Shown one piece after another: positions 295-59,599 of a stretch of 64,000 nucleotides of DNA. A model generated the notes under the pieces. It did not search any database. It saw nothing but the letters and a program-made list of their open reading frames with translations, and had not been told where the DNA came from. A program made the translations under genes and the position numbers. The stretch spans positions 96,001-160,000 of IMG/VR virus record IMGVR_UViG_3300046820_001270; one strand, given 5' to 3'. The number at the start of each line of letters is the position of its first letter. The first letter of the stretch is position 1. This stretch comes from a virus (lineage: Duplodnaviria; Caudoviricetes).

Positions 295-315
295 TAGACA
301 TAGAAGTATACTCAA

Positions 316-2503: not shown

Positions 2504-2506
2504 TTA

Positions 2507-16750: not shown

Positions 16751-16848
16751 TGTAATGAGTGAACACCCATTCCTTACTCTTTTCTTGGGATTTGTGTTGA
16801 TGGTGGTGGTAAGTGAAATAACCGAGATATTTAAGAGAAAGGAGTAAC

Positions 16849-17211
16849 ATGAAAACATTTTTATTTTTCCGCGGATTCGTAGAGAGTCCTTTATTGGATA
16901 TTGATTGGGAAGAAATCAATAGAAGAATGAATACCAATATAATACCAATAACGACATATCCAACTTGGACAGGGACGACTTATACTCCGACATGGGTTGT
17001 AAATCCGGGTTATATTACGTATACACAACCAAATTATTTAGCAACAACCGGTACATTTATAAATCCATATAATAATACCACAACAACTGCAACTAGTTTT
17101 AGTTTGACAACATCAAACCCAAATGGAATAACATATACCACAACAAGAAATGCAGGAACTTTAACAACAGGAACAGATTTATATTCAAGTAGTAGTTTTA
17201 AATTACAATAA
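16849..17211 (+). CDS. Thr-rich hypothetical protein
   Basis: Low-complexity Thr-rich C-terminal half; stop abuts next start. Confidence 0.65.
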   Translation: MKTFLFFRGFVESPLLDIDWEEINRRMNTNIIPITTYPTWTGTTYTPTWVVNPGYITYTQPNYLATTGTFINPYNNTTTTATSFSLTTSNPNGITYTTTRNAGTLTTGTDLYSSSSFKLQ

Positions 17212-18682: not shown

Positions 18683-19259
18683 AATAGTTGAAATGTTTGA
18701 GGAGGAGATTGCGGAATATACTGGATCCCCTTACGCAATTGCGTTAGATAATTGTACTGATGCATTATTTCTGTGTTGTGTATATTCAAAGGTAACAGAA
18801 GTAACTATTCCTAAAAAAACGTATCTATCGGTACCACAAGCGATTATGTCTTCAGGTGGTAAAGTAATATTTGAGGATACGGAATGGAAAGGTCTTTATG
18901 AGTTAAAACCATATAAGATATATGATTCGGCAAGAAGATTTACAAGTGGTATGTACATACCAAATAGTTTTATGTGTCTTTCTTTTCATCCTAAAAAAAT
19001 ATTACAAATGAGAAAAGGTGGTATGATATTGACAGATAATGAAGATGCTTATAAATGGTTTAAAAAGGCTAGACACGAGGGGAGAGATGAAATACCATAT
19101 ACACAAGATAATATTAAGTTTTTAGGTTGGAATATGTATATGACACCACCAGATGCTGCCGATGGATTATGGTTGATGTCATCAATGCCAAAACATAACG
19201 AGGATACAATTGAAAATTACCCTGACTTAACAAAAAATGATTTATTCAATAAATTTTAA
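18663..19259 (+). CDS. short DegT/DnrJ/EryC1/StrS-family PLP-dependent aminotransferase
   Basis: FEEEIAEY...AIALDNCTDALFL; IYDSA; SFHPKKIL...GGMILTDN; only 198 aa. Confidence 0.8.
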   Translation: MKHNPYKIVEMFEEEIAEYTGSPYAIALDNCTDALFLCCVYSKVTEVTIPKKTYLSVPQAIMSSGGKVIFEDTEWKGLYELKPYKIYDSARRFTSGMYIPNSFMCLSFHPKKILQMRKGGMILTDNEDAYKWFKKARHEGRDEIPYTQDNIKFLGWNMYMTPPDAADGLWLMSSMPKHNEDTIENYPDLTKNDLFNKF

Positions 19260-20222
19260 ATGATGGAGGATTTAATACTTATAACCGCATATTGCGAAAC
19301 TGAAAAACAAGAAGAGGCATTAAATAGATGTATTGATTCGGTAAGTAAACTCGGATTTCACATTTTACTAATATCTCATTCACATATACCAACATACATA
19401 CAAAAAAAATGTAATTATTATTTTTACGATTATAATAATGACGTTAGTGAGGATCATAATTTATTAGGACATTTTACTTTTAACTTTGATAATAAAAAAA
19501 TAAATTCTAGATTCTTTATTAAAAAATTTTACGGGTTTGCAATATATAGAATGTTTTCAATTGCTAGTCAAATAGCCACAAATTTTGGATATGATAATCT
19601 ACATCATATTGAATATGATTGTGAATTGTTGGATGAAAATTTAATCTTTGAAAATAAAGAAAATCTTAAAAAGTATGATTCAGTAATTTGTACTGACACT
19701 GGCGATAAAAACGGGTGGTTATATGGTTCATTTAAGTCATTCAAAGTTAAATCATTACCAGATAAATTTAAAAATTACGACAGAGATTTTATTGAATCTG
19801 AAATGAAAAATTTAACTAAAACACATTTAGAATTTTTAACAAAAAAATTATTTATTGATGGAGGAAAAACTTTATTTAAAAATGAACCACCTAAGGATAA
19901 GTTTAAAAAGGGAAATATATCCGAACATAGGTATCTACATTTTACACTTTATTTTGACCCTGAAAATGGAACATTGAATATTTTTTATAATGCAATTAAC
20001 TTAAAAAAATCGGAAGAAATAACTGTAATTGTAAATAGAGAAAAGGTAATTAATTTAATAACAAAACCTGGATTTTGGACTACAAGAGAACTGGGTAATT
20101 TTAATCAAATAACACACGTCAGAGTGGATAATAATAAAAAAGTTATTTATGAAATTGCATTTGACGACGATTTTAGAGAAATATTCAAAATAAAATCATA
20201 TATTACCGATAATGATAAATAA
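19260..20222 (+). CDS. hypothetical protein, possibly glycosyltransferase-like
   Basis: LILITAY...ISHSHIP...HHIEYDC pattern; position in sugar cluster. Confidence 0.45.
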   Translation: MMEDLILITAYCETEKQEEALNRCIDSVSKLGFHILLISHSHIPTYIQKKCNYYFYDYNNDVSEDHNLLGHFTFNFDNKKINSRFFIKKFYGFAIYRMFSIASQIATNFGYDNLHHIEYDCELLDENLIFENKENLKKYDSVICTDTGDKNGWLYGSFKSFKVKSLPDKFKNYDRDFIESEMKNLTKTHLEFLTKKLFIDGGKTLFKNEPPKDKFKKGNISEHRYLHFTLYFDPENGTLNIFYNAINLKKSEEITVIVNREKVINLITKPGFWTTRELGNFNQITHVRVDNNKKVIYEIAFDDDFREIFKIKSYITDNDK

Positions 20223-38950: not shown

Positions 38951-39028
38951 GTTAGTGGTATTATATATGTGGATAAGTTTACGGGGGATTGTTTTTATTT
39001 ACAAAATATCTTATCTATACTTAATAAC

Positions 39029-39559
39029 ATGACAAAGTTATGTAAAAAGTGTAATAAAGAGTTCACACCTATCAAAGGGTATGTTAATTATTGTGGACCG
39101 AAATGTAGAAGTGGTAGGGAACAAACCCCTCAGATGTTAGAAAAGAAGAGTATTGCCAATAAGAAACACTGGAAAGATGGTGGGGTATTCAGAAATATGG
39201 ACTGGGATGTGCTAAATAACCGACCTGAGAAGATTAAGGTTACATTAGAGGTATGGTTCCTTAAAGCGGAACAAAGAGTATTAAACGGGGAACAACTCAA
39301 TAATGAGACCACAAAGAAGTATCTAATAGAGAAACACGGTCATAAGTGTTGGGGATGTGGAGCAACTGAATGGCAGGGGGAAAAACTACACTTAGAAATG
39401 GATCATATAGATGGAAATAATAAGAATAATGATATTAACAATATAAGGATACTTTGTCCTAACTGTCATAGTATAACTCCAACATGGAGATATAAGAACA
39501 TTAAGAATAAAAAGGATAACCCTAAAGCTAAAGGTCTAAGGTCAGGATATAATTTATAA
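39029..39559 (+). CDS. HNH endonuclease with N-terminal Zn ribbon
   Basis: CKKCNKEF...YCGPKC; CWGCG...LEMDHIDGNNKNN...LCPNCHS. Confidence 0.88.
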   Translation: MTKLCKKCNKEFTPIKGYVNYCGPKCRSGREQTPQMLEKKSIANKKHWKDGGVFRNMDWDVLNNRPEKIKVTLEVWFLKAEQRVLNGEQLNNETTKKYLIEKHGHKCWGCGATEWQGEKLHLEMDHIDGNNKNNDINNIRILCPNCHSITPTWRYKNIKNKKDNPKAKGLRSGYNL

Positions 39560-40516: not shown

Positions 40517-41253
40517 ATGTCTCCGACATCCGTGTCGGGAACATCCTGTTTATCCCCCGAAGGACCCGTTAGGGTCCGCAGTAATCGGTACAAATATAGT
40601 ACAAAAATCCCACCTTTAGACCCCTGAAAATTACCCCTAATTTATCCCCGATATTGACCCCTGTAGAGGGGTTTTATTTGTACCTTTTTATCGTAGGGTT
40701 TAAATTGGTCTAATAATCCCACTTTTACTAATATTTATTGATTGTAGATATCCCAGCGTCATTTTGGGGAGAAAGTGGGGAAAAGTGGTAGTATGTGGGG
40801 ATTGACCCTCGACCGAAGTAAGGACCATATCCTAAAAAATTTGAATATATAACTGTAATACGGGGTCCTTCGGACCCCTTCAGGTCTGTCATAGTGTCAT
40901 ATATAGTTATATATAATAACCCTTTATATATGTAATACGGTGATCTGTAATACCTTACATTCTATTTAACATAAAGTACGTTATAGGTTCACAAGTTATC
41001 CACATTACTGACCCTTGTCATACACCCTGAAGGGACGACCGTAGGATCGTCCCGTAATACTTGCCAAACAATATCAGGGAAATTAATGTTTAACCATTTA
41101 AGTGTAATACTTACACAAAACTTGCCAAACAATATTACAGGTCTTTTGGGCCAAACACATTTGTCCGTCATACATCCGTTCGTCTACGGTAATACATAAA
41201 ACCTGAAGGGGACCCTATGGGTCCCCGAAAGTAAGCTTATTATGTAATACGAA
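40517..41253. other. non-coding region with several GC-rich hairpins at a convergent strand junction
   Basis: GGACCC-GTTA-GGGTCC, GGGGTCC-TTC-GGACCCC, GGGACGA...TCGTCCC, GGGGACCC-TAT-GGGTCCCC; DnaA box at 40996. Confidence 0.7.
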
Positions 41254-42162
41254 TTAATATCCTATGTCGAAGTTCTTAAAACGTTTCTTTAGATATTCAC
41301 GGAATTCTTTTTGTTCCTCGTCAGACAGAGGTGATTCCTCGGGGGAGTTCTTTTTACCATCAACAATTTCCCACCCAAAGTTACAGGTGATTTCGAAGTT
41401 AGGATGTAATACCTTATCGGCTCTATTGTAGTTAAACTTATCTTGATGTATCACAAACCCCTTGGACCAATCATGTGGTTCGAACAATTCATATGTATGA
41501 CCTCTCCATGTTCCTCTCTTCAGTGCGTTATACACAGACCTGGCTTTCTTTACCAACTTGGACATTGCCAGAGAATATCCGTCTGAGAAGGTTGGAAGAT
41601 CCCCTTGGGTTAAACTATACGTATTTAACAGATGTGATCTTGAGAACATGATACCACCGAACTTTTGTGGGGACAGAAGTTTCAAGTTATACGTCGGAGT
41701 ATCCATGTAGTCCCTTAGGTGAAGTATACCTTGACCAGGATGGACAGATATATTCTGTAATTTCAAATGATAACAATCAATTAGATCAGGAGGATAGATC
41801 GATGGTTTATTCATTAGATCAGGATTAATCTTAAGTAGACTATCGACGAAGTCAGCTACAGATACCTGTAGGATATTCAAAGGGATCTCAGGATTTGGGT
41901 TCATGTTTGGCATGTAGTCAATTCTAAGATTGATCTCCCCAAGATACTTCTCCTCATTATACCTAACAAAGGTGTATGGTATTTGGTCCAATTGAACTGA
42001 ATAATGTATCTCACCTTCAGGTATTTGGAACTTCCTATAGAACATATGTTCCTTCTTAAACTTCTGCACAGTCTGCACGAATTTTTCACTGGCAAACTTA
42101 AACTTGTCATTAGGGATATTATCCTGTTCCTCCGTTAATCCTTTTAATTTACTTAGTCTCAT
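41254..42162 (-). CDS. tandem-module family protein (one clear and one divergent module)
   Basis: MRLSKLKGLTE leader; KKARSVYNALKRG. Confidence 0.8.
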   Translation of the reverse strand: MRLSKLKGLTEEQDNIPNDKFKFASEKFVQTVQKFKKEHMFYRKFQIPEGEIHYSVQLDQIPYTFVRYNEEKYLGEINLRIDYMPNMNPNPEIPLNILQVSVADFVDSLLKINPDLMNKPSIYPPDLIDCYHLKLQNISVHPGQGILHLRDYMDTPTYNLKLLSPQKFGGIMFSRSHLLNTYSLTQGDLPTFSDGYSLAMSKLVKKARSVYNALKRGTWRGHTYELFEPHDWSKGFVIHQDKFNYNRADKVLHPNFEITCNFGWEIVDGKKNSPEESPLSDEEQKEFREYLKKRFKNFDIGY

Positions 42163-42282
42163 AGTATATAAATATTGCCAAACAACATTGGATCGATCAG
42201 ATCCTGAAGTTCCTGTTGTTCCTAATGTACCATATGTTCCTGATGTTTCTTGCCAAACAATATCAGCATCCTGCGTCTTCGA

Positions 42283-42540
42283 TCAGGATAGTGGTTCTAC
42301 AGATACAGTTCGTCTATTGTTCTTACCAGTCTTGAAGGTCATTATACCATCTGCTGTAGCAAATAGTGTATGATCAGAACCCATACCGACATTGCTGCCA
42401 GGATAGTACTGTGTTCCTCTCTGGCGGATGAGGATGTTACCAGCTCGTGCTGACTGTCCACCGTGGATCTTTAATCCTAATCTTTTGCTGTGTGAATCAC
42501 GACCGTTCTTTACGGACCCTTCACCTTTCTTGTGTGCCAT
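42283..42540 (-). CDS. rpmA: 50S ribosomal protein bL27
   Basis: [22 protein letters not shown]...[10 protein letters not shown]...[12 protein letters not shown], full-length L27 signature. Confidence 0.97.
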
Positions 42541-42623
42541 ATTCTTTTGTTATTTACTGTTTACTATAAATAATAAACCCCCCACAATAGTGGAGGGTCC
42601 ATTATTGTTCGTCTATAATACGA

Positions 42624-42821
42624 TTACGCCGTCTTCAATAATTGGTTACGGAAAGTAATTGCTGTTCTCTTGTTTGAGAAGTTCTTAGAGATCTTATTAC
42701 CGTTAACAGATGCTCTTACGCGGTATGAACTACCGTCGAAATATACATTGTTAGATACTGGTACATAAGTTGTCTTGGTGCGACGAGCTGTACTCTTACG
42801 AGTTGTTGTTGTTTTTTTCAT
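42624..42821 (-). CDS. small basic AP2-like DNA-binding protein
   Basis: Start re-called at MKKTTTTRKS; YRVRASVNGNKISKNFSNKRTAITFRN. Confidence 0.55.
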   Translation of the reverse strand: MKKTTTTRKSTARRTKTTYVPVSNNVYFDGSSYRVRASVNGNKISKNFSNKRTAITFRNQLLKTA

Positions 42822-42946
42822 AATCATTAATTGTTTATAATAAAATATAACACCAATTATTGATAATAAAAAATTTAAGGCAACTTTTTTTTGGATTTCT
42901 CGAAATTTAATTTGCCAAACAACATTCCACAGACTCACTGTCCCGA

Positions 42947-43075
42947 TCAGTACTTCTCCTCTACATGATCATACCACACATCTCCCCACTTACCACACAT
43001 GTAGTTGAAGTGTTCCTCAGTACTCATGAGGTAGTAAAGGATATGTTTGTCCCATATGAACTTAAACTTTGTCAT
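42947..43075 (-). CDS. small FKF-tag peptide (42 aa)
   Basis: MTKFKFIWDKHILYYLMSTEEHFNYMCGKWGDVWYDHVEEKY; missed by ORF track. Confidence 0.5.
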   Translation of the reverse strand: MTKFKFIWDKHILYYLMSTEEHFNYMCGKWGDVWYDHVEEKY

Positions 43076-43560
43076 GGTATTTAATTTCAATGTTAACACT
43101 GTCTAAATTGAAGGTGTCGTAGAAATCTTGTAGGATCTCTATCTTGGCCCTTCCCACCCAAGGCAAGAGAAACCCCGAATCCATCTTTCGTTGGATCTTG
43201 GATATCTGATCCCTAACCCATAGTTTAACTAATTGATCATTCATTTTCTAATATTTTATATTGTTTATCACCAACAGTATCCAAGATATATGCAACCTCT
43301 ACTATATCCTCCAAGTCGTAGGTGGACAAGTCATCGAACTCATCCCCTTCTTGGTTCATACCCGTTAAGTACTGTCCATCGGTCATAGTCTTAACAAGGT
43401 ATGGTACCTTGATCCAATAACCTGACATATCCTCCTCACTGACATAGACATTGAATGGTTGATCAAACTCTATGGTCTGACCAAGTTGGAATAGATTCTC
43501 TATTTCGTTACAAAACTTAATCCTTAAGTTCTTAACTTCTTCTCTTGAGTTGTAGTTCAT
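43062..43560 (-). other. two hypothetical ORFs (43062-43244; 43237-43560)
   Basis: Overlapping start/stop junctions; second start re-called at MNYNSREE. Confidence 0.65.
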
Positions 43561-43561
43561 A

Positions 43562-44149
43562 TTAATCTTCGTTGTTTTCGTTATCAAATTCTTCTTCCTC
43601 ATCTTCATTCTCATCTAAGAGGTCCTCATCGGAGTTCCCAAGATACTCTAATCTAATTCCCACAATCTTATCACCATCCATCATTACATCCATAGGATAT
43701 AGTCCATCACCAATACCTGATGAGGTTACCACACCTGTGTCATACAAACCCCATTGGTTTTCAGATAAGGTAAATCTACACATCTTCTCATACCACTTCT
43801 CTCCACCATCGTCCTTTCTATATTGTCCAAGACTGAAGTCACTCTCGGGTGTTGTAATACCTTCAGACATTTCATCGTTACGATAACTTGTCATACAGAA
43901 GACACCACACTGTCCACTATCAACACCACATTCACTGTGTTGTTCCCAATCACCATCATCTACATAATCCTCGTGGATTACTGTAATACTTGACACTCGG
44001 GTACCCCAACCTGTTCCTTCATCGTGTCTATCTACCTCGACATTGTACTTACCGGGTAATACATTAGTTAATTTAGTTTGACACCAAGTGTCGGGTGTAT
44101 AACAAGGGTCAGACACCATTACATTTTCGGAGAGAGTAATTTGATTCAT
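43562..44149 (-). CDS. DUF4241-like protein
   Basis: VSDPCY; GVDSGQCG; SSGIGDGLYPM. Confidence 0.6.
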   Translation of the reverse strand: MNQITLSENVMVSDPCYTPDTWCQTKLTNVLPGKYNVEVDRHDEGTGWGTRVSSITVIHEDYVDDGDWEQHSECGVDSGQCGVFCMTSYRNDEMSEGITTPESDFSLGQYRKDDGGEKWYEKMCRFTLSENQWGLYDTGVVTSSGIGDGLYPMDVMMDGDKIVGIRLEYLGNSDEDLLDENEDEEEEFDNENNED

Positions 44150-44207
44150 TTTAATTTAGTTTAGTTTATGGGGATAAAGTTAAATTGTTTATTCGAATAT
44201 ACCAAAT

Positions 44208-44926
44208 TTAGTTGGAATATATTTTAGTAAAGTTATCCACATTTTCAATAATAGTTTCTAACATAGATGTCCTTAACTTGTAATACACCTTCTTCATAAA
44301 GTCCTCATTGCCAAACAATATCTGAGGATCCACTGTCATCCCATTCGGGAAGTAGAGGTCTATAGGATCAATTAGAACTCTGAGTTCATTGATGTCATTA
44401 TCGGTTCTGTAGAAATTTGTTCTGGCATAGATGTACTTGTCCTTAACGGTATATAGTTTCACATTGCCAATCAAGTTTGACAGTGATCGGATCTGAAGTA
44501 CTATAACTTCTAAATCAGACAACTCTTGTATATCGGTCTTCATCGCAGTTACTCGTTCCTTGTACAGTTCCACGAATTTTGCCAAACCAATTTCGGGATG
44601 GAGATCCGTCCCGTGGTCATCAGTTATGAATTGTTCCCACTGCGGTATAGTCTCTTGATCACCTACCACTTTAAGGAAAACTCCGTTGTTTAATTTGCCC
44701 ATGATAATGGATTTAAAAAGTTAATAATTTTGCCAAACAAATTCCCACCAGCAGATCTTGTCTGTCCAAGGAAAACTTTTGTGTTAAACACATTGCCTCC
44801 ATAGTATCGTGTGGGTTTAGTGTATCCACTTGCCACACCATATTGGCGGAACCACTCGTCTTGAGTCAGTTGTTTTTCGGGGTAAGTAGTCTTACTCACC
44901 TTCGGTGTCGTCGTCATCTTCGTCAT
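44208..44926 (-). other. two hypothetical ORFs (44208-44702; 44690-44926) containing embedded TGCCAAWCAA motifs
   Basis: ORF track; motif at 44309, 44465, 44731 and a variant at 44580. Confidence 0.65.
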
Positions 44927-45542
44927 TGTTATTAATTGTTTCGTTATAAATTCTTGTTAATTCTACCTTGTCTTCATCTGATACGAAATCGAATTCGGTT
45001 AGGAAGTCCTCTAATGATAGTTCCTCATCTACAATACAATCACTTCTATATTCTACTTCAGACCAAAACTCCTCTCTTGAGTATTTGTATATTCCCTCAA
45101 GATATCCACATTCGTCGTCATATACTTCCAACTCACCATGCACCCAATTAAATGTGGTTTCACCAGCAAACCCTACTCCTCCTTCAGAATAGAACAGGTA
45201 CGCATTCACCTTGTACATCTCACATAAGTTCTGTAGGAATGGAATCGGTGGTGACCAAGCCGTTTCACAACTCAAAGTGATTTCATCTTTACTGAATGTA
45301 AATGAATGTTCCTCATATGAGATGTCCCATTTAGTTCCAAACCATTCAATGTTAGTGTCGTACCATTTCTCCTTGTAATCACCATCAGACATATGTTGAG
45401 GTAATCCTATGAGGGATTGAAACACATTATCACTTGGACCATCATCATCAGATGACTTAAGGGATTTGATAACGGATGTGAGAGTACGAATTGTACCCTC
45501 ATCACCGCTGATTTTAATGTAGTTGTTGCACCAATTTGGCAT
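44892..45542 (-). CDS. DUF1281/YubB ferredoxin-like domain protein
   Basis: MPNWCNN; WFGTKWD; ETAWSPP. Confidence 0.7.
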   Translation of the reverse strand: MPNWCNNYIKISGDEGTIRTLTSVIKSLKSSDDDGPSDNVFQSLIGLPQHMSDGDYKEKWYDTNIEWFGTKWDISYEEHSFTFSKDEITLSCETAWSPPIPFLQNLCEMYKVNAYLFYSEGGVGFAGETTFNWVHGELEVYDDECGYLEGIYKYSREEFWSEVEYRSDCIVDEELSLEDFLTEFDFVSDEDKVELTRIYNETINNNDEDDDDTEGE

Positions 45543-45548
45543 AGTATA

Positions 45549-46145
45549 TTAGTTTTCTTGTTCTTGTTTAAAATCATTTAGGAACTCGTCCTCAAATGGT
45601 AAGTTATTTAACTGATAAGATTTAATCAATTTGATTGGATGATAATCACTACCCTTTTCAGTTAGATTAAAGAACCTATCCTCTATTGTTAGTGGTTCTT
45701 TATTAAAACCCTCGTAAACTTCTAATTTGTTATTATCCAAATCTACAAGATATGCCCACTCACAGAATAAACTATCACCTGCGAAGTCTGTGCTATCGGT
45801 AATCCAAATCTCATCTTCTTCACCATCTCTAATCATTTCGAGAATTCTAGCACCATTATCTCTTGTGAGGTATGGATACTTCTCTTGATATAACTTCGAC
45901 TGGTCTCCTGTCATCCAACCATTCTCACATCCAATAGTCTTTAACCAATTCTGAATTTCTTTCTCTTTGTTTCCGTTTGTAAAGAAAACTTTGTTTAGTT
46001 TGTTTTTAAATTCTTCCAAATTAGTTGTTTGTAAGAACTCTAATACAATAACACCATTACCTGATGGGTATCCATCCCATTGTCCGTATTGTGCTACCTT
46101 TGTTTCTCCATTGGAGATTACCATTGTTAAATTTCTTGTTCCCAT
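45549..46145 (-). CDS. conserved hypothetical phage protein
   Basis: MGTR...YGQWDGYPSG.G...EWAYLVDLD motif set. Confidence 0.8.
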   Translation of the reverse strand: MGTRNLTMVISNGETKVAQYGQWDGYPSGNGVIVLEFLQTTNLEEFKNKLNKVFFTNGNKEKEIQNWLKTIGCENGWMTGDQSKLYQEKYPYLTRDNGARILEMIRDGEEDEIWITDSTDFAGDSLFCEWAYLVDLDNNKLEVYEGFNKEPLTIEDRFFNLTEKGSDYHPIKLIKSYQLNNLPFEDEFLNDFKQEQEN

Positions 46146-46235
46146 AGTTTTATAAGTTTAGGACACAAAGATAAAGTTTATATTTTTATCCAACAAATTT
46201 ATTTCAAAGTTTTTTTTGTTAAAATGTTGTTAAAG
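46146..46235 (-). promoter_or_regulatory. Bacteroidota-type promoter with upstream TTAACA direct repeat (representative)
   Basis: Minus strand TTTAACAacatTTTAACA...TTTG...TATCTTTG; TTAACA pair 11 bp apart also at 48060/48071, 49386/49397, 50473/50484, 51373/51384. Confidence 0.75.
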
Positions 46236-46427
46236 GATTTTACCAGAAAAACTGGTAGGCGCAGCTGGCTGATATTGATTGGCAACATTTGCGCTGTAAA
46301 ATCCAGCAGAGGCGCACAGGGGGAATTTGTTTGGCAAACATAACTCGTTGATAATCAATAAAACTAATTTTGCCAAACAACATCGGTGCTGTGCTGCGCT
46401 AGAAATTTAAATTGCTTCATTAGTGCG

Positions 46428-46460
46428 CAAAAAAATCCCCCGTACTTCTACGAGGGATCG
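46428..46460 (-). terminator. intrinsic terminator for minus-strand cassette (representative)
   Basis: A-tract followed by a CCC...GGG hairpin on the + strand; similar at about 46836, 48418, 49591, 50695, 51487, 52417, 53781. Confidence 0.7.
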
Positions 46461-46487
46461 AACTAAACTTACTAACCCACACCTTCT

Positions 46488-46664
46488 CTATTTACTTTGT
46501 AATACGTCTTTAAATAATTTTAAAGAACCATTTATTATAGTCGTCTCTTTAATCGCATCATCTATTGATTTAAAACTCTTGTGTAATACGAAAGTCTTGC
46601 TATCATTGGAATACCAAACATCATACGTTTTTTTACTTGGAGATAAAATTATCTTCGTGGTCAT
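46488..46664 (-). CDS. hypothetical protein (58 aa)
   Basis: MTTKIILSPSKKTYDVWYSNDSK...; TACCTTTG -7 box upstream; missed by ORF track. Confidence 0.6.
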   Translation of the reverse strand: MTTKIILSPSKKTYDVWYSNDSKTFVLHKSFKSIDDAIKETTIINGSLKLFKDVLQSK

Positions 46665-46903
46665 TGTTATACGGATTTAATGAAGTACAAAGGTAATACA
46701 TATTTTATTACAAACCAACAAATTTTTAAATTTATTTATTTTTTTATTATATGTGAAAGATTTAATCAAAAAAGTTAAACAGATCTTGCCAAACAATATC
46801 TCACCAGGCCCATTACTGGTATTACATCTAATAAAAATGGAGATCCGTAGATCTCCATTGTACAACTAACCAAACACTTAATTATTAAACACTATATAAT
46901 ATA

Positions 46904-48002
46904 CTAAAAATTTTTGACTTGGTCAACTTTATTAGAGAAAACTTCTAATACATCACCTCGACCATTCATGTTGTATATCTCAGCCGTAGATTCACCACCA
47001 TTATCACTTGGTTGTAATACTTCCTTTGTATCCATAATCTCTTCCCAACTAATCTGTTCAAGGTCTCCGTCTTCATACATTTGTTTGGCAATCTTAACTG
47101 CCTCGTTTAAGTCGTTAGCCTTAACTTCAAAGTCGGTTCTCATCCATGTTGTAACCTTTTGGTCTAAAAAGAATTCAAATGTTTTCATATGTTAAAATTT
47201 ATTTCTTACACCCACCTTACGAAACAAATCGTCGTACGGGTCTGTTTTTGGTTTTAGTGATTCATTAATTAGTGTGATATCAGCTTCGGATATTTCATCC
47301 ACAAACTTCTTATCCAAATCGTCGAGATGTCTGCCAGACAATTTGTCGAATCCTCCCATCTGATATTTGGGATAGATAATCTTGGTTTCTGTGTCGATTA
47401 CTGATGCTACGGAGTTTAGTTCTACTATCATGGTAAATCGTTTTCGGTGATTGTTAATATAGTTTCTATATCATATTTAAAACTTATCAAATACTCAAAC
47501 ATCTTCTCATCACTCTCAATAATTTCTTGTTTGGTAATTGGTGAACTATTCCAATTATCGTAGAAATTATTAATCACTGCGTTTCTCAAACCTTTAATGG
47601 TAAAATACATTTCATCTGACGATGTATCTTCCTTATCTTTTAATTTTAAAATATCTATTTTCATATTAATTGTTTTAATTTGTAATTAAATTCTTCTCTC
47701 ATACCTTCTACATCATAAACCTTCTTGGTCTCGTCGTCGTTGGGATGATAGAAACTAATATCCACCTCAATTTTATTACTTGGAAGGATTTGTTTCATAA
47801 GATAATCTACAACCTTACCACCGATAATTTCTTTCACCTCTTCAATCTCTTCCTCGTTCTCCACATCAATAGTGATACCACCTTGAATTAAATTATCAGT
47901 AACCTCCTCAATAAATTCATCACAAGAAATACTTTCGATGAATTGTGTGTGTTTGTCGGCGAATATGTCATTCACCATTTCAGATACAATTTGTTTGTCC
48001 AT
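46904..48002 (-). other. four small hypothetical ORFs (46904-47188, 47192-47431, 47428-47664, 47661-48002)
   Basis: Operon between promoter (about 48003-48080) and terminator (about 46836). Confidence 0.7.
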
Positions 48003-48221
48003 GTTTAATAAGTTTAGACCACGAAGATAATTGTTTTTTCTTTATCAAACAAATTGATTTGTTAAAACTTTGTTAAAGAAATTAACAGATGTATTACCTG
48101 TGATCCGAGCTGTATTATTGTTTGGCAGAAATGTCAAGTTTATTGCGCAGAAAACTTGACAAGTGTTATAGTTTTATATAAAAAGGTAACAAGTGTAATA
48201 CGTTGTTGCCAAACAACTTTG

Positions 48222-48297
48222 GGTACATGAGGAACAAGTGGCACTTCAGGAACATCTTGGAGGAACTTGTGGCACTTCGGGAACTTGAGGAACAGCA
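48222..48297 (+). repeat. 9-bp-period GG(A/C/T)AC-N4 tandem repeat
   Basis: ggtacatga/ggaacaagt/ggcacttca/ggaacatct...ggaacttga/ggaacagca; also 51969-52004 and inverted at 42203-42250. Confidence 0.8.
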
Positions 48298-48469
48298 GAT
48301 CCCAACAATTTGATTGGCAATTGCCAAACAACAATGTAAGCTCACCAGGCGCTAGTATTTGTAATACGATTGCCAAACAACATTCCTCGCCGGCACTGTG
48401 CCTATTTTGATAAAATAAAAAACCCCCTACTTTCGTAGAGGGTCGGGAGGGAAAACACAAACCTAACTA

Positions 48470-49318
48470 TTAAACCATATGAACCAAATCTGAAAATATC
48501 TCTTGTTCTACTTGACCAATACCACCGAACATTTTTGCTTCGGTATTATCGTTCTTACTATAAGAGTGTGTAGTGTATTTTGTTACACCACTAAATAAAC
48601 CCCACATATTATCACCCTTTTGAGACAACTCACCATTTAAGTCAATATAAAATCTTGATAAGTTATTACGTGTTCTCGTTGATAAAGCATCTCCATCATT
48701 TAAATCAACTTCAGGTTTGATGCCAAACAATTTTCGAGTCACCTTCTCCTTCAACAAATCGTCAAAACGTGTTTCACTTAATTCAGTAATGAATCTGAAT
48801 GTTTCCTTCTCTTCTTGCAAAACAATATCCAAACGTCTGCAGATGTCTTCAACTTTTAAAGACATAGACTTTGTGTGTCGAACTTTGTTTTGAAGTCCAC
48901 TCATAACTCTAAAGAACGTGTTCATACAACTGATAGTTGTATTAGAATGACCGAATGCCAATGATGTTGAACCATCAAAAGAATTCACACCCGTTAAGAA
49001 ACCTTCGATGCGGTCATTGCCTAACTTCAAATCATTTCCTTTTAATTGAACGTAGATACGACCACCATCCTTGAACTCACCTCCACGATGAATTTCTAAA
49101 CCCGTTCTACCTGATACTTGATGTAATAAGTCCATCAACTCATAATTCTGATAAGGAACATAACCATCAGAATGCAAACCAACAATCATGTTGTTGTCAT
49201 CTCTAACTATTGCCTTTTTGTTTGGAATACTAATACCACTAATGGTTTGTAATTCCTCTTGGCGAACCGTCCAATTAAGGTTGGTCTTGTCCAATAATGT
49301 TTTTACTTGTTCATTCAT
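48470..49318 (-). CDS. DUF932 / TIGR03299-like phage-plasmid protein
   Basis: KAIVRDD...Y.PYQN...GGRIYVQ...NSFDGSTS...CMNT...HTKS. Confidence 0.85.
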   Translation of the reverse strand: MNEQVKTLLDKTNLNWTVRQEELQTISGISIPNKKAIVRDDNNMIVGLHSDGYVPYQNYELMDLLHQVSGRTGLEIHRGGEFKDGGRIYVQLKGNDLKLGNDRIEGFLTGVNSFDGSTSLAFGHSNTTISCMNTFFRVMSGLQNKVRHTKSMSLKVEDICRRLDIVLQEEKETFRFITELSETRFDDLLKEKVTRKLFGIKPEVDLNDGDALSTRTRNNLSRFYIDLNGELSQKGDNMWGLFSGVTKYTTHSYSKNDNTEAKMFGGIGQVEQEIFSDLVHMV

Positions 49319-49643
49319 ATTAATTTATTTAGAGTGTAAAGGTAGTCTTTTTATATTACCCACCAAATATTATTTAATCTTTTTTTGTTAAAGTTTTGTG
49401 AAAGGATCTGTAATACGAGAATAGGATCTGTGACGCACTGTAAATATTGATTGGCAAATGCCAAACAACATTAACTGAGTAAATTAATCCAAGTCGTGTT
49501 GTCCTGTTTTTTATATAATAAAGTGGACATATGTAATACGAACTTGCCAAACAATATATTTGCATGCGCATGGTAAAATCTGTGGACATAAAAAAAGGGA
49601 TTGTCTTACGACAACCCCCGTTCCTATTATTCACTAACCAAAT

Positions 49644-50390
49644 CTAAAACCTTAAATTAACTTTATTACTTCTCTTGTAATTGTAGATGTCCTCAATCAT
49701 TTCTACATATTGGTCTACCGTACCACAAGCAACTAAATTGTTTGGTCTTAACTTAACTTTGTGTAAGAACTCACTAAACACAAACTCTTTCTTATTTGAA
49801 ACAACTTTGATAAAAGCTCTTACGAAAATAGCTTTAGTGTAATACTTCTCAAAGTAAGGTTTCAACTCTAATATATAACCCGCCCACTCACGAGCTTTTT
49901 TCTCATTCTTAACAACATACTCACCACTTTCAAAAGTATCTCTCTTGATTGTTGATAATGTGTTGTTCAATAACATTGCAACTTCCGTGTATTTAAACAT
50001 TGGAAATTCATTTACGAATTGATTGAAAGTAACGTAGTGTGAATTACCTTTTGTTACAAACTTGTGTAAGTGGTCAAAGGGTGACCAATTTCTTTGTAAG
50101 GTATTCATACTTGTCATTTCATCACTACCTGCACCTTTTGTTACTTTATAACGAATTGGTGTGTTAGCAGACATTGCAGCTTTTACTCTGTGTTGTCCGT
50201 CAATAACTTCACCATTACCATTTAAAGTTACAACTGATGATGATAACCAACCATTTTGTTTCATACGATTAGCTAACTTCTTTACATGATTTTGATTAAC
50301 TAAACGATTGTCGCCACGAAACTTAAAGATTGAATAATCTTTTGTTTCAAAGATTTCACCTACTTTTTTTCCAACTTGAATCTTGTTCAT
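49644..50390 (-). CDS. ParB/Srx N-terminal-domain-like protein
   Basis: NRLVNQNHVKKL...GEVIDGQHRVKA. Confidence 0.7.
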   Translation of the reverse strand: MNKIQVGKKVGEIFETKDYSIFKFRGDNRLVNQNHVKKLANRMKQNGWLSSSVVTLNGNGEVIDGQHRVKAAMSANTPIRYKVTKGAGSDEMTSMNTLQRNWSPFDHLHKFVTKGNSHYVTFNQFVNEFPMFKYTEVAMLLNNTLSTIKRDTFESGEYVVKNEKKAREWAGYILELKPYFEKYYTKAIFVRAFIKVVSNKKEFVFSEFLHKVKLRPNNLVACGTVDQYVEMIEDIYNYKRSNKVNLRF

Positions 50391-50749
50391 TTTAATTATT
50401 TTTTAGATTAATGAATAGAGAACAAAGGTCTATATAATAATTGATATAAACAAATATCTTTTATAATATTTCTGTTAAAGTTTTGTTAAGGTGTAATACG
50501 AAGATTTCCCGTCTGCATCTGTGGTGATGTTGATTGGCAAGATCTCACCAGTTGGTTTCCAGCTCAGGACCAGTGACGATATTGATTGGCAATGCCAAAC
50601 AATAAATGCACGTGCGCTGTTGTCACGGGGGTTAAGTGTAATACGTTTGCCAAACAAGTTCTGAGATGGATCCGAACCAACACTTCTTGTAAATAAAAAA
50701 CCCCCGAATTACTTCGAGGGTCTTCACCTTTTCTCAACCTTATGTATTT

Positions 50750-51316
50750 CTACACAACTTCTTTTTCTTTTTCATATACCGATAATACATTCATACCTTC
50801 ACCTTCACAATCTTCTTCACTAAAGAAACTTCCACAACTTTCAACAATAGACTTGTGTTCATGTCCTTTATCACAAGTTTCAATTTCATAAATTGTGTAT
50901 TGGTAAACATCACCCGTAATGTAATGGTCGTAAGTCTTAACATCACTATCTATAATTTCTTCTAAATTAGTTTCGGTATGTCCACTACTATCACCCGTAA
51001 TGTATTGTAATTGTTTTTCAGTAATGAATACCCAACCAATTTGACCACTATCCCACTGACAACCGAACGGAGTAGTACTAATTGTAATACCCGAGTGGTC
51101 GTACATATACAAAGGTTTAATCATTAATACTTTGTTATCACTTTCGATTTGTTCCTTAAGTTCATCCCAACTACTAAAGTCACTTGACTTGTAGTCGGTC
51201 TTATCACCAAGGTCGTACCTTTTGTGAAAACATATTATTGTAGTAATGTTGTCCCACTCGGTGCGAGGGTTCATTGGGTCGTTGTCTTGTTCAATTTTTA
51301 ATTCGTAAGTTTTCAT
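50750..51316 (-). CDS. conserved hypothetical phage protein
   Basis: DNDPMNPRTEWDN...HKRYDLGD...PLYMYDHSGITIS...WDSGQIGW...Y..GDVY. Confidence 0.8.
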   Translation of the reverse strand: MKTYELKIEQDNDPMNPRTEWDNITTIICFHKRYDLGDKTDYKSSDFSSWDELKEQIESDNKVLMIKPLYMYDHSGITISTTPFGCQWDSGQIGWVFITEKQLQYITGDSSGHTETNLEEIIDSDVKTYDHYITGDVYQYTIYEIETCDKGHEHKSIVESCGSFFSEEDCEGEGMNVLSVYEKEKEVV

Positions 51317-51538
51317 ATCATTTAGTTTAGGGTATAAAGGTAAGTTATTTATATAACATACAGAAATTTATTTGTTAAAATTTTGTTAAAGAAATTTCAT
51401 ACCTGTCGTCCATATTCCATTATTGTTTGGCATTTGCCAAACAACTTCCCACCAGGAAGGAGATCTTACGGGGAAGATGAGGTAATAAAAAACCCCTCGT
51501 ATTTCTACGAGGGGAAACCACAAAATATAAAATCAGAA

Positions 51539-51829
51539 CTATAAACTTATTTCAACTTCTTTGGTATCGTCGTGGTCAAAGTCCCAACTCCAATCTTCTA
51601 CGAAAGGTCGTGTACTAATAAAGTAAGTATTATCTTCTTCTTCATTTAAGATAACCATACCATAAGTTTTTTTCTCACATTCAAATACATTAGTATCCAT
51701 TAATTTTTCTAATACACTAACACATTCTTCTTCAGAAGTATTAGTATCATTTACCATATCCCAATTTTGAACAAACTCAATTTGTCCTAAAGAAACTCCG
51801 AACTCAAAAAATTTAACATTGTTTTTCAT
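51539..51829 (-). CDS. hypothetical acidic protein
   Basis: Own promoter and terminator. Confidence 0.75.
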   Translation of the reverse strand: MKNNVKFFEFGVSLGQIEFVQNWDMVNDTNTSEEECVSVLEKLMDTNVFECEKKTYGMVILNEEEDNTYFISTRPFVEDWSWDFDHDDTKEVEISL

Positions 51830-52477
51830 ATCATTTATTTTAGAGTATAAAGGTAATTCTTTTATTTAATATACACAAATATATTTCATAATAATTTGTT
51901 AAAGAAATTTTCCTGAATCGGATCCGAATATATTGATTGGCAAATGCCAAACAAATTGTCCTGACACGGGAACATAAGGAACATCGGGAACTTGAGGAAC
52001 AGCGCTCAGGTAGATATTGTTTGGCAGTAATACGTGTTCACTAATTCTTCTTGTTCACGGAACGTGAACATCGGTAATACGTGAACATGCCAAACAACAT
52101 TCTCAGTGCATGAGGGTGAATGGTCTAAAGTATTTATCGTTCATTCGTAATACGTTTATCGGTCAAATAGGTGTCAAAATGATCGATAATTGACTTATGT
52201 TTGATCGATAAGTTTCATTTTGACTTGTATTACGATGCCAAACAAATTCTCTACAGTGCCCACAGAATCTATACGAAAGTGTAATATAATACACATTTAC
52301 TTGGAATAATAGGTGTTCTATGGTAAAGTGTAATACGAAAGTGTAATATATTACACATTTAACTGCCAAACAATATTTCCTGGAGACGATTCTACAACGG
52401 AATCTTCATAAAACAAAAACCCCCCGTAAGTAATACGAGGGGAACATGAAAAACACAATATGAACACAAACAAACTT

Positions 52478-52828
52478 TTAATAGTTATAATCTACGAAAT
52501 TATGAGGGTTATAATTTCTTCTCACGGGAGTTCTTTGTCTATGACTAACGGGAGTGTATGACAAAGGTCGGTCTTGGTTGAAGGACTTTTCCATTCGTTG
52601 TTCAATAGTAGGAACTTCGTAGTCCATTTCAGGTGGAATACCATTCTTCACTTGCCAAACCATTTTTTGGATTACATTCAAGGTCTCCTCAACGAAAACA
52701 ATACCATTCGTTGTGGTTATCTTTGTTTGGACTAATCCACTTTTCATATCAGTATCCATATAGATTGATACGATTTGGTCTACATTTACTAATGTGGGTG
52801 TACCACGATGTGTCAGTTTAATTAACAT
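52478..52828 (-). CDS. FlbD-like small protein
   Basis: MLIKLT....LVNVDQIVSI...TKITTTNG..FVEETL.VI pattern. Confidence 0.55.
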   Translation of the reverse strand: MLIKLTHRGTPTLVNVDQIVSIYMDTDMKSGLVQTKITTTNGIVFVEETLNVIQKMVWQVKNGIPPEMDYEVPTIEQRMEKSFNQDRPLSYTPVSHRQRTPVRRNYNPHNFVDYNY

Positions 52829-52994
52829 TTGATTTATTTTTAATGATTACTAATTCCATTCTTGTAGGTATGACAATTGCCAAATTACATTCATCACAAC
52901 ATTCGTCATCTTCATTTTGGGTTTCAATAGGACTTGGGTTATTACCATAACCCTCGACTTCATTACCACATAAACAACATTTAAATTTCTCCAT
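52818..52994 (-). CDS. small Cys-rich (Zn-binding-like) protein
   Basis: MEKFKCCLCGNEVEGYGNNP...ECCDECN; missed by ORF track. Confidence 0.6.
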   Translation of the reverse strand: MEKFKCCLCGNEVEGYGNNPSPIETQNEDDECCDECNLAIVIPTRMELVIIKNKSNVN

Positions 52995-53000
52995 TTTAAT

Positions 53001-53213
53001 TTAATTTAATACTTCAAAAATATCTTTACCAATAATAAGACCTAAGGTACGACCATTATCCCATTTAACATTGACAACATCAAAACCAACATTGTAAACA
53101 ACTCCTTCACGACCAACCAAAATTGGTTGTGGGTCATCTTCCATTGGTTCAATAAGTCTAACTCTTTTACCCATTAATATTTGTGGGTTTACAAGAACAT
53201 CATTTACTATCAT
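53001..53213 (-). CDS. DUF4314-like protein
   Basis: GKRVRLI.PMEDDPQPI..G..GVV...VKWDNGRTLGLI.G.D. Confidence 0.75.
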   Translation of the reverse strand: MIVNDVLVNPQILMGKRVRLIEPMEDDPQPILVGREGVVYNVGFDVVNVKWDNGRTLGLIIGKDIFEVLN

Positions 53214-53214
53214 A

Positions 53215-53364
53215 TTATTTAATTTTAGAGATTTTTAATTTGATACCATAAACAACTAAATTGATTAACGATAAAACGAATAGACAAACACAAATACTCC
53301 AAAAGATAAAGATAAACTTTTGAACTCCCTCTAATTGATTGTAGATTTCTTGATACATAAACAT
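53215..53364 (-). CDS. small membrane peptide
   Basis: MFMYQEIYNQLEGVQKFIFIFWSICVCLFVLSLINLVVYGIKLKISKIK; promoter upstream. Confidence 0.55.
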   Translation of the reverse strand: MFMYQEIYNQLEGVQKFIFIFWSICVCLFVLSLINLVVYGIKLKISKIK

Positions 53365-53829
53365 TTATTTATTTGATTAACTAATATTACACGAAGGTAA
53401 TACAAAGTTTTGATATCACAAATTTATTTAGAATATTTTTTATTTTTTTTCATACCTGTCGTCCACACTCGAATATTGATTGGCATGTATGACAAAACCC
53501 CCAACATCCTGATCGTCGTCCTAAACTTGTTTGGCATATACGATAATATCCGTAGATATCCGAAACCATATCCGAAATTGCCACACAACATTACAAAACA
53601 AGCAGACTCAAGGGGGTTTGTATGACAAAGTTTGCCAAACAACAATTTTCCCGTCGGAGAACCTCCTCTTCAAATTTATTTTGTTAAAGGATTTGCCAAA
53701 CCATATTAGAGATGACGATGACATCTCTTGGTGTATGACAATTGCCAAACAACAATTCCTGGAAGGAGACGAATATGGTCAAAAAAAACCCCCACCTTTC
53801 GGTGAGGGTCGGTTAGTGGGGGAACTAAC

Positions 53830-54387
53830 CTAATCAATAATTGTGTACTCTTGTTTGAGTATTTTAATTCTCTTGATATTGTCTAAACTTAATACCTTAT
53901 AATTTAAGGTATTCTCTAAACCATTTTGATACTTTGAATAGTCGGTCTTTGTATCAATCATATATTGTTGGAACAATAACTTTTCAATACTATTACCCTC
54001 AATCAAATATCTTGTGTCAAGATAACTACTATTGTGGTCTTGATATCTAAAGTAGAATTTAGTCGGGTCGGACTTTAAAAATACTAAAGATTTAGAAACC
54101 AACTGATAAGGACTTTCTTTTTTATCCTCATTCACAATAGGGGTAATTCCCTCTTTCTTATACTTTCGTTCTAATTGTTCATCATAATCAAAACCCGTTT
54201 GGATATTTGATAACTTTTGTTCAATCAAAACCTTATCGTAATAAGGGTTAGGATTTTGTTTACCACTTGTCTTGAAGTCAAGGTACTTGTTCATCTTAAC
54301 TTTTTTTAATGTTGTCAATCCCACATTAGGGACAAAGATATCTATACCTGATAGTATATCTTTTAGTTCAGTTTTAATAATGTTCAT
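53830..54387 (-). CDS. hypothetical phage protein
   Basis: ORF with own promoter (TAACTTTG) and terminator. Confidence 0.8.
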   Translation of the reverse strand: MNIIKTELKDILSGIDIFVPNVGLTTLKKVKMNKYLDFKTSGKQNPNPYYDKVLIEQKLSNIQTGFDYDEQLERKYKKEGITPIVNEDKKESPYQLVSKSLVFLKSDPTKFYFRYQDHNSSYLDTRYLIEGNSIEKLLFQQYMIDTKTDYSKYQNGLENTLNYKVLSLDNIKRIKILKQEYTIID

Positions 54388-54559
54388 ATCTTATTGTTTG
54401 TTCCCACAAAGTTAATGTATATACCAATACAAAGTTAGAATATACAAATAAAGTTATCCACATTCTATTGTTAATAACTTGGGGGTTCACCTTCGGGAAC
54501 TAATGTGGTTTGGCAAACTCTTGAGAACGAACCTTGATGGGATACTCCATTATTGTTTG

Positions 54560-54790
54560 GCAGGTCGGGTAAGGTATTGATAGTCAAAGGGTTAGGGGTA
54601 GGTAGGACTGATAGGGGTGGTGTACCCCCTCCCCCCTCCCGTATCCCCCCTTTATATAGTGTTTTAGGGGGGTCTATAACAGGGGGTCAATGCCACGACT
54701 GAAATTTTTCCAGAAAAAAAGTGAAAAAAGGGTCTTTACCCCTAAAAGTGATTTAAAAATTTTCCAGAATTTTTTGGAAGTAATGAGTAT
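54560..54790. other. G-tract/C-tract element at a divergent strand switch (candidate origin or genome terminus)
   Basis: GGGTTAGGGGTAGGTAGG...GGGGTGG, then CCCCCTCCCCCCTCCCGTATCCCCCC, then G6 and G5 runs; DnaA box at 54454. Confidence 0.55.
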
Positions 54791-58221: not shown

Positions 58222-58337
58222 TTTCTAACCTCCGATAACCCCGTTCACGACTTTCCGACGCCGGAACCCCCGTTCGAAATTTTTATGTCTTTCTATTTTT
58301 GTGTCCGTTAATAATAGTGGGATATTTATATGTGTAT

Positions 58338-59528
58338 ATGAAATTAATTGATATTATATTTGAGTCGGTTATTGATATGGGTGAGGTTCATGGTCAGAAA
58401 TTAACCGATGCCGATTTTATTAATAGATCTAAAAAAATATGGGGAGATAGGTATGACTATGGTAATGTAAACTATTATGGTAGTCATATACCTGTTAAAA
58501 TTAAATGTTTAAAACATAATAACGAATTTGAACAAAGGCCCGCAAATCATTTAAACGGATCACAAGGTTGTAAGTATTGTGTTGAAAAACCTGACAGGTC
58601 TTTAACATTATCTGATTTTGTTAAAAAATCACATGATGTTCATGGTAACAAATATGACTATGATAAAGTAGTAATGGGTAAAAAGAATACACATAAAGTT
58701 GTTATCACTTGTCCTAAACATGGAGATTTTTTACAATCTGTTGCATCTCATTTAAAAGGTAACGGTTGTAAAGTATGTGACCTTGAAAATCGTAGTTTGG
58801 ACACAGATGAGTTCATCAAAAAGTCAAAAGAAAAACATGGAGATAAATACGATTATAGTAAAGTAAATTACGTTAATAATAAAACACCCGTACATATTAT
58901 ATGTCCAATACATGGGGATTTTTTACAAATACCTCATAGACATTTAATAGGAAACGAATGTCCTAAATGTGGTAATAGTAAAAAAGGTCAACGTTCAATG
59001 ACACGTGATGAATTTATATCACGAGCAAAAGAAAAACATGGTGACAAATATAGTTATGATAATGTAATAATGGGTAAAAGAGTTCACGATGATAAAGTAT
59101 GGATTACATGTCCCAAACATGGTGATTTTTTACAATCCCCATGGAATCATATCAATTCGGCAGGTTGTCCCGTTTGTCTTGAACCGAGAGGAGAATCTAA
59201 AATAAGAAATATATTAAAATCATTGAATGTTGATTTTTCTAAAGAACACGTATTTGATGATTGTGTGAACACAACTAGCGGTAAAAAAAGATGTAAAAAA
59301 TTACAATTTGATTTTTATATCCCATCTAAAAATATTGCTATCGAATATGATGGAATACAACATTTTAAACCAGTTAAAAGATTTGGGGGTATTGAAGTGT
59401 TCAATACTCAAAAAATTAACGATAAAATTAAAGATGAGTATTGTGAAAAAATGGGTATTAAATTAGTTCGTATTCCATATACCGAATTTAAAAATCTTGA
59501 AGAAATATTAAAAACGTTATTAGTTTAA
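58338..59528 (+). CDS. DUF723-like Zn-repeat protein with C-terminal PD-(D/E)xK (DUF559/Vsr-like) nuclease, class-B leader
   Basis: Four repeats FIxKSxxxHGxKYDYxKVxY...IxCPxHGxFxQxxxxHLxGxGCxxC; FDFYIPSKNIAIEYDGIQHF. Confidence 0.85.
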   Translation: MKLIDIIFESVIDMGEVHGQKLTDADFINRSKKIWGDRYDYGNVNYYGSHIPVKIKCLKHNNEFEQRPANHLNGSQGCKYCVEKPDRSLTLSDFVKKSHDVHGNKYDYDKVVMGKKNTHKVVITCPKHGDFLQSVASHLKGNGCKVCDLENRSLDTDEFIKKSKEKHGDKYDYSKVNYVNNKTPVHIICPIHGDFLQIPHRHLIGNECPKCGNSKKGQRSMTRDEFISRAKEKHGDKYSYDNVIMGKRVHDDKVWITCPKHGDFLQSPWNHINSAGCPVCLEPRGESKIRNILKSLNVDFSKEHVFDDCVNTTSGKKRCKKLQFDFYIPSKNIAIEYDGIQHFKPVKRFGGIEVFNTQKINDKIKDEYCEKMGIKLVRIPYTEFKNLEEILKTLLV

Positions 59529-59599
59529 TTAAATAAGATTAACCCTCCATAATGGAGGGTTTTTTATTTAATATTATATTGGGATATTTATATGTGTAT

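Follow-up and report, generated by a model that had tools for sequence, protein, structure and literature searches.

Ribosomal protein genes in viral genomes make the boundary between viruses and cells less sharp, and reveal the parts of the ribosome that limit translation during infection. Mizuno et al. 2019 described 14 viral ribosomal proteins, including bS21, bL12, bL9, bL31, bL33, bS6, uS9, uS15 and HPF; bL27 and bL21 are not among them (PMC6375957). Viral bS21 and bL12 can enter host ribosomes (PMC6375957). In addition, the Microcystis jumbo cyanophage PhiMa05/MaAM05 (MW495066) harbours genes for bS1, bL21, bL27, bL33, uL11 and uL1 (PMC13157829, ISME J 2026). The preliminary description of the locus studied here had stated that viral ribosomal proteins are mostly bS21, bL12 and HPF-like, which holds for the 2019 set but not for PhiMa05, whose bL27 and bL21 were reported in 2025/2026. 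Cells that lose bL27 are barely viable, and tmRNA-SmpB then disturbs elongation; it is the tail of bL27 that protects elongating ribosomes against such interference by tmRNA-SmpB (PMC13450312).

We analysed a stretch of 64 kb of viral DNA (hereafter the window) that contains a bL27 gene (rpmA). A phage bL27 is already known from PhiMa05, and the gene of the window is an independent further instance. Within the literature searched, it would be the second case in which a phage lineage independently captured bL27, here from a different host phylum (Bacteroidota). Both are jumbo tailed phages with a full-length bL27 of cellular origin, bL21 is present in some relatives of the window phage, and the role proposed for PhiMa05, the replacement of host proteins in ribosomes, is also the one proposed here. 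However, the two bL27 proteins are 56% identical, and the donors appear to be Vampirovibrio-like for PhiMa05 and freshwater Chitinophagaceae for the window phage. In MaAM05, rpsA, rplU and rpmA are adjacent amid other cell-like genes, whereas rpmA of the window stands alone between phage ORFans. Unlike in MaAM05, bL21 in the relatives of the window was probably captured separately and later, and a DUF932 gene lies between bL21 and rpmA. A further point of difference from PhiMa05 is that presence or absence of bL27 is polymorphic among close relatives in the window phage group. Like the proteins of the 2019 set, which are enriched in aquatic viruses, the bL27 of the window appears to be host-derived and under purifying selection, occurs in aquatic viruses and behaves as an auxiliary gene. 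Unlike the loosely bound, exchangeable and peripheral proteins emphasised in that set, it has a tail that reaches the catalytic centre.

The bL27 gene and its phage surroundings

The bL27 ORF (Table 1) has 85 codons and an ATG start. Its product matches PF01016 (E 4.9e-35, 119.9 bits at a cut-off of 20.5), with residues 2-81 aligned to positions 1-79 of the 79 in the profile, as well as the equivalog TIGR00062 'L27' (117.7 bits at a cut-off of 90.35). It also aligns over its whole length to bL27 chains from solved ribosomes. The motif G-x-[LIVM]2-x-R-Q-R-G-x5-G, which we take to be the core bL27 signature, is present at residues 34-48, and this region aligns with the solved chains. The two family matches and the end-to-end structure alignment bear out the earlier claim of a full-length rpmA. 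With respect to composition, the gene has a GC content of 45% and a GC3 of 37%, compared to a window mean of 32%.

Table 1. Features of the bL27 locus and of related phage genomes. Positions are those of the window unless a genome is named.
Feature	Position	Strand	Basis or remark
bL27 (rpmA) CDS, 85 aa, full length	42283-42540	minus	Pfam, TIGR00062 and solved chains
Presence/absence indel versus L097, L099 and one X3 contig	~42272-42553		almost exactly the bL27 ORF
65-aa phage ORFan, upstream of bL27	42624-42821	minus	homologue in L001-type phages
302-aa phage ORFan, downstream of bL27	41254-42162	minus	common to L005-L007, L097 and L099
A/U-rich 24-nt leader, from hairpin to ATG	42541-42564	minus	homologue in bL27-less L099
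17-bp stem-loop followed by U-rich tract	42569-42606	minus	folding, -26.5 kcal/mol, z -5.2
TATTTATA	42565-42572	minus	24 nt upstream of bL27 ATG
TTGTTTGGCAA, copy 22 nt past the bL27 stop codon	42250-42260	minus	regional motif
TTGTTTGGCAA, second copy, 12 nt before the start codon of the 302-aa gene	42175-42185	minus	regional motif
TTGTTTGGCAA, further flanking copy	42912-42922		
9-bp periodic repeat (GTWCCNNNN)n, between bL27 and the 302-aa gene	42200-42249	plus	
tmRNA (L119)	G001:C1:86274-86679		
tmRNA (L120)	G002:C1:215469-215870		
tmRNA (L121)	G003:C1:2880-3280		
tmRNA (L122)	G004:C1:19431-19832		

In cellular loci, rplU was found about 50 bp upstream of rpmA in 80 out of 80 cases, and most loci contained a divergent 184-aa gene. 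In the window, both the upstream rplU and the chromosomal neighbours of the rplU-rpmA(-obg) operon are absent. When the entire 64-kb window was searched by tblastn, no bL21 homologue was found, and neither the 65-aa nor the 302-aa flanking ORF matched a Pfam family, hence neither of them is Obg. Moreover, the flanks consist of phage genes, as judged from collinearity with IMG/VR records, and harbour motif copies (TTGTTTGGCAA and a 9-bp array). The surroundings are therefore as first described, with no rplU or obgE neighbour and with phage genes and motif copies on both sides. The window gene resembles rpmA of Chitinophagaceae in length (85 versus 84-92 aa), in its first 22 residues, which are identical, and in the RQRG core. 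It differs from it in the lack of rplU and of the divergent 184-aa neighbour, in an identity of at most 77-78%, in the phage intergenic motifs of its locus, and in Y46, S/N49, M53, H57 and a short C-terminus. The window encodes a bona fide viral ribosomal protein.

When IMG/VR was scanned directly for bL27, neither a protein query nor an alignment query gave a copy that was confirmed; by these scans, the bL27-bearing lineages are absent from this collection. A megablast search of 14 kb of the window against GenBank phages gave no match. Relatives were reached via the DUF932 gene located 6 kb from bL27, which led to 14 IMG/VR contigs. One of these, the 66.9-kb contig L097, is collinear with the window between 38.9 and 54.5 kb at ~87% nucleotide identity, while L099, which lies in G001, is collinear at ~72% identity. 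G001 is an IMG/VR record of 335,630 bp that is 100% complete according to CheckV. The first 20 kb of the window (1-20 kb) are collinear with G001 as well (75-92% identity), and the window is also collinear with G003. Genes for a large terminase (matched by Terminase_6N; Terminase_6C gave no match in the relatives), a 977-aa tail sheath and a baseplate J protein are present in both G001 and G002. Because of the collinearity with G001 and of these genes in G001 and G002, we assign the window to a jumbo myophage; its own structural genes would fall outside the 64 kb, the myophage type being read from the relatives. Window positions 16719-19993 map across the ends of G001 (335265-335580, then 11-3082), so that the ends of this 'linear' record are probably arbitrary, the genome being circularly permuted or terminally redundant.

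About 25 large ORFs of the window were compared to PHROGs and Pfam. Most gave no match and nearly all are ORFans; the sole matches were to HNH endonucleases, Laminin_G_3, FG-GAP, PG_binding, DUF1281_C and, weakly, DUF4241. No tRNAs were found within the window. Two HNH/homing-endonuclease genes are located in tandem near the window end (58299-59528 and 59552-62050), and a third, 3 kb away from the bL27 block, at 38969-39559. The HNH genes match phrog_559 (E 9e-79 and 6e-40) as well as Pfam HNH. The 65-aa ORF upstream of bL27 shows 80% identity over 46 aa to the 65-aa gene of the L001-type phages, and the same gene is also located upstream of bL27 in L005.

An assembly chimera or cellular contamination could have joined a bacterial rpmA to phage DNA, and the junctions had been named as the place to look for this. 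Such hybrids do exist (L012, see below), and cellular rpmA transcripts match the conserved 5′ coding stretch. However, in three other assemblies from JGI and Logan (L005-L007), a 96%-identical bL27 adjoins the 302-aa gene as it does in the window. Moreover, a single contig of 2,134 bp from an unrelated lake metagenome (X8) spans the 302-aa gene, bL27 and the 65-aa gene; the short repeat array at 42203-42250 is the sole point at which this contig departs from the window. In addition, homologues of the leader and trailer of the gene are present at the empty site in relatives. The junctions thus recur in four independent assemblies and are not chimeric, and we regard the chance that the locus is an artefact as close to nil.

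Origin and distribution of the phage bL27

The nearest named homologues of the window bL27 are from freshwater Chitinophagaceae (69-77% identity), and no cellular bL27 was above 77-78% identity. A maximum-likelihood tree was built from 110 bL27 sequences, 76 of them from named genomes. It took in all context-checked phage homologues (L001, L005, L008, L013 and L015), and L012 was left out. The 11 phage-type bL27s formed one clade (99/99) on a stem of 0.6, nested in a 99/98 clade together with six freshwater Chitinophagaceae or Bacteroidota MAGs. Because a single phage clade is nested among Chitinophagaceae, the tree indicates that a phage ancestor probably captured rpmA once and long ago, from a freshwater Chitinophagaceae lineage. 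The phylogeny, which had been suggested as a check on the gene, also yields a host prediction, namely freshwater Chitinophagaceae, for an uncultured phage group of ~335 kb. The window lineage itself is on a long branch (0.61).

L012 (ENA KRAE22-1 scaffold_54139, 1-1573), in which rplU directly precedes a phage-type rpmA, was placed at the base of the phage clade in the first tree. It was considered as the ancestral captured operon and rejected, since it is a hybrid whose breakpoint falls within rpmA. The left part of L012 is cellular, with the 184-aa chromosomal neighbour and an rplU that is 92.7% identical to that of a MAG. In its rpmA, roughly the first 44 codons are cell-like and the remainder is identical to that of phage L008, and the 219 bp past rpmA are 99% identical to the L008 spacer. 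L012 would therefore have arisen either by chimeric assembly or by natural host/phage recombination within rpmA; when retained, it distorts trees. Also rejected was 'Acinetobacter phage MD-2021a' (L118, CAKLQH020000002.1 214159-222413) as a phage precedent. This record is bacterial chromosome, because its rplU-rpmA genes sit among ispB, lolA, serS and cysG. Further rpmA matches were to short unannotated 'Bacteriophage sp.' and similar fragments.

Members of the phage bL27-type clade were present on numerous lake contigs, which came from several assembly sources. The sister lineage (L001, L008, L013 and L015 types; contigs of 25-62 kb) has its bL27 at another site, between a 76/85-aa gene and DUF932, and has ~19 genes in common with the window, in shuffled order. 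The L001 subtype, to which L002-L004 also belong, harbours in addition a 99-aa bL21 right after DUF932 (L001:11551-11850). In a bL21 tree, the L001-type bL21 was placed on a short branch in another, Sediminibacterium-like Chitinophagaceae group (98/98). Because of this short branch in a different group, bL21 appears to be a separate, later capture. Separate captures of bL21 and bL27 from one host operon would point to the products of this operon as a bottleneck.

Neither bL27 nor bL21 was found anywhere in the complete G001 or in three other relatives, and ten further IMG/VR lineages had no bL27 near DUF932. Because the gene is missing from the 100%-complete G001 and three more relatives, bL27 is predicted to be a dispensable accessory gene in this phage group. 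The empty site measures ~75 bp in L097 and L099, compared to ~370 bp for the same site in the window. Compared with L099, the indel (Table 1) is nearly ORF-precise, since homologues of the 24-nt leader and of the 19-nt trailer are present at the empty site. In run X3, bL27-bearing contigs occurred alongside one contig in which 42272 is joined to 42553, with a shorter side of 30 letters, which gives a weak hint that bL27-plus and bL27-minus forms co-occur in X3. Related phages with and without bL27 may share lakes in this way, and would then provide natural isogenic-like pairs.

Hairpin, repeated motifs and transcription of the locus

The stem-loop upstream of bL27 is conserved in L097, L099 and L005. 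Because it is kept in relatives that have no bL27, it is best read as a putative terminator of the upstream 65-aa gene. It had been proposed that bL27 stands behind a phage-type promoter represented by TATTTATA. This motif is indeed present upstream of the gene on the minus strand, but the promoter reading fails: the motif is marginally enriched in the window (28 copies versus 18.1 expected), and the copy in question overlaps the 3′ arm of the terminator-like hairpin and its U-tract, which are retained in bL27-less relatives. No promoter of its own was recognisable for bL27, which directly follows the strong hairpin. A scan for sigma-70-type promoters gave 7 sites versus 4.5 expected, and the same scan missed the hairpin that was confirmed by folding. 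In a search of Rfam over 40-55 kb no ribosomal-protein leader was found; a match to BSnc120 (24.9 bits versus a threshold of 114) was below threshold and taken as chance. The gene would be transcribed either by read-through of the hairpin or from a start within its A/T-rich tail.

In the RNA library X22, contigs covered 41700-42417 at a depth of ~5.5, for which DNA carry-over is possible. This cover joins the 3′ half of bL27 to the next gene, whereas the high-depth pieces are cellular rpmA, and 42546-42860 was without cover. In X23, cellular rpmA alone was found over 42481-42540, plus one low-depth piece on the upstream gene.

The regional motif TTGTTTGGCAA (reverse complement TTGCCAAACAA) occurs in 45 copies versus 2.2 expected. 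All of them lie within 41061-54563, a minus-strand block of 13.5 kb, and some are inside ORFs. The motif often precedes GTATTACA or makes tight palindromes, and it looks like an operator or promoter that a dedicated regulator or polymerase would use. At bL27, its copies sit downstream of the gene and not directly upstream. The second type of motif, (GTWCCNNNN)n, gave 10 matches in intergenic spacers versus 0.02 expected, also at 48222-48293 and 51969-52000. Every phage-type locus contained it, whereas the 80 cellular loci had no copy, and in the L001-type phages an array is located ~130 bp past bL27. L005 does not have the array at 42200-42249, and runs X8 and X22 have 15 other letters instead.

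T4-type phages are reported to possess hyperplastic regions with mobile terminator/promoter cassettes, the PeSL elements (reportedly Arbiol et al. 2010). The window locus resembles such regions in having a small accessory ORF amid repeated motifs and a stem-loop, and in gain, loss and reshuffling at the level of single ORFs. The motifs of the window are nevertheless unrelated in sequence to those of PeSL elements, and exchange mediated by the motifs is a lead only. A 466-bp spacer without genes follows DUF932 (48003-48469) and is crowded with both motif types. In the L001-type phages, DUF932 instead has bL27 upstream and bL21 downstream; tblastn found no remnant of bL27 or bL21 in the window spacer.

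Selection on the protein and its possible role in infection

Pairwise dN/dS values among the phage bL27s ranged from 0.05 to 0.23, with dS near saturation, and the globular body had a dN/dS of ~0.1. These ratios argue that the phage bL27 is kept by purifying selection. Residues 1-22 (the AHKK...NGRDS tail) were invariant in 11 out of 11 phage copies and identical to those of the nearest Chitinophagaceae bL27s. At the codon level, 11 of the 22 positions showed synonymous variation, with up to 10 nt per pair and not a single amino-acid change. The N-terminus had been described as different from the E. coli type; it is, but it is not unusual, as these 22 residues are the ordinary form of Bacteroidota and Chitinophagaceae. 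A tail that stays frozen despite synonymous turnover is hard to explain unless the protein docks in the ribosome.

These data also bear on the idea that bL27 is a neutral passenger, recently acquired host DNA with no role in the phage. Its patchy distribution, the ORF-precise indel among close relatives and a GC content (45%, GC3 37%) above the phage background would all fit this. However, the phage copies are synonymously saturated relative to each other and yet have dN/dS values of 0.05-0.23. Moreover, no cellular sequence exceeds 77-78% identity and the clade is spread over many lake contigs. A passenger is largely refuted by dN/dS, the tree and the tail codons, and we consider it highly improbable.

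The clade-typical changes are found in the globular body and comprise Y46, S/N49, M53, H57 and a shorter C-terminus. Position 46 is His in 75 of the 76 cellular sequences and position 49 is Lys in cells; Y46 was fixed in 12 out of 12 members of the clade as first built, the hybrid L012 included. The residues of the window bL27 that were not seen in the 76 cellular homologues are L23, H26, R32, Y46, M67 and T71, and the extra changes of the window lineage are L23, H26, R32, M67 and T71. M53, H57 and R32 are found in bL27 of solved ribosomes, whereas Y46 was not seen there. Because they occur in ordinary ribosomal bL27s, M53, H57 and R32 are no sign of a new function. The unusual residues of the window lineage and its fast branch could reflect either altered function or relaxed constraint.

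From the pattern of selection and published work, we infer that the phage bL27 is probably made during infection, takes the place of the normal bL27 in the host 50S subunit and sustains translation. An ancestor of these freshwater jumbo myophages would have captured rpmA once from its freshwater Chitinophagaceae host lineage, and the gene would have been kept intact, with moves and losses inside a hyperplastic block of small phage genes. During infection, the protein would dock at the normal bL27 site of host 50S particles that are newly assembled or short of bL27. There, its host-identical tail would reach the peptidyl-transferase centre, position tRNA 3′ ends and bar tmRNA-SmpB from elongating ribosomes, so that translation capacity would be held up while host ribosomal-protein synthesis drops. 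The earlier suggestion that the phage supplies bL27 is thus retained in part: the gene is intact, phage-borne, outside the rplU-rpmA-obg context and apparently selected, but the phage-type promoter has to be given up, and the timing late in infection that had been suggested finds no support in these data. Several observations do not fit easily with this role. bL27 is outside the loosely bound, exchangeable proteins that are enriched in viruses (PMC6375957), which makes a swap in mature ribosomes less obvious. In addition, the gene appears dispensable and has no recognisable promoter of its own, the regional TTGTTTGGCAA motif lying downstream, and the window lineage evolves fast, with residues absent from the 76 cellular homologues.

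Alternatively, the phage protein might act off the ribosome or antagonistically, as a decoy or regulator and not as a structural ribosomal protein. For instance, it could sequester a host factor by which bL27 is bound or modified, exert feedback on the host rplU-rpmA(-obg) operon, or blunt a host defence that works through bL27. Accessory status is typical of counter-defence or fitness cargo, and the long stem, the fast window branch and the substitutions at positions invariant in cells, including Y46, would suit such a function. The separate capture of bL21 from the same operon likewise hints that the operon products matter. On the other hand, the tail is absolutely conserved under synonymous turnover, the body has a dN/dS of ~0.1, most clade-typical residues are normal in ribosomal bL27s, and no partner gene travels with bL27. 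We therefore consider an off-ribosome function unlikely and favour incorporation into host 50S subunits.

A functional tie between bL27 and the phage tmRNA, by which lineages that have acquired bL27, and in one case bL21 as well, would keep ribosomes replete with bL27, was considered because tmRNA is present in all sampled relatives and the bL27 tail blocks interference by tmRNA-SmpB (PMC13450312). Abundant phage tmRNA would then hit only truly stalled ribosomes and spare phage mRNAs. We give such a tie little credence; if it held, the natural bL27-plus and bL27-minus variants would be a ready-made experiment. The tmRNA was full-length in 4 out of 4 sampled IMG/VR relatives (Table 1), with 85-93 bits versus a gathering score of 47; judged by gene content, tmRNA is a predicted core gene and bL27 an accessory gene in this phage group.
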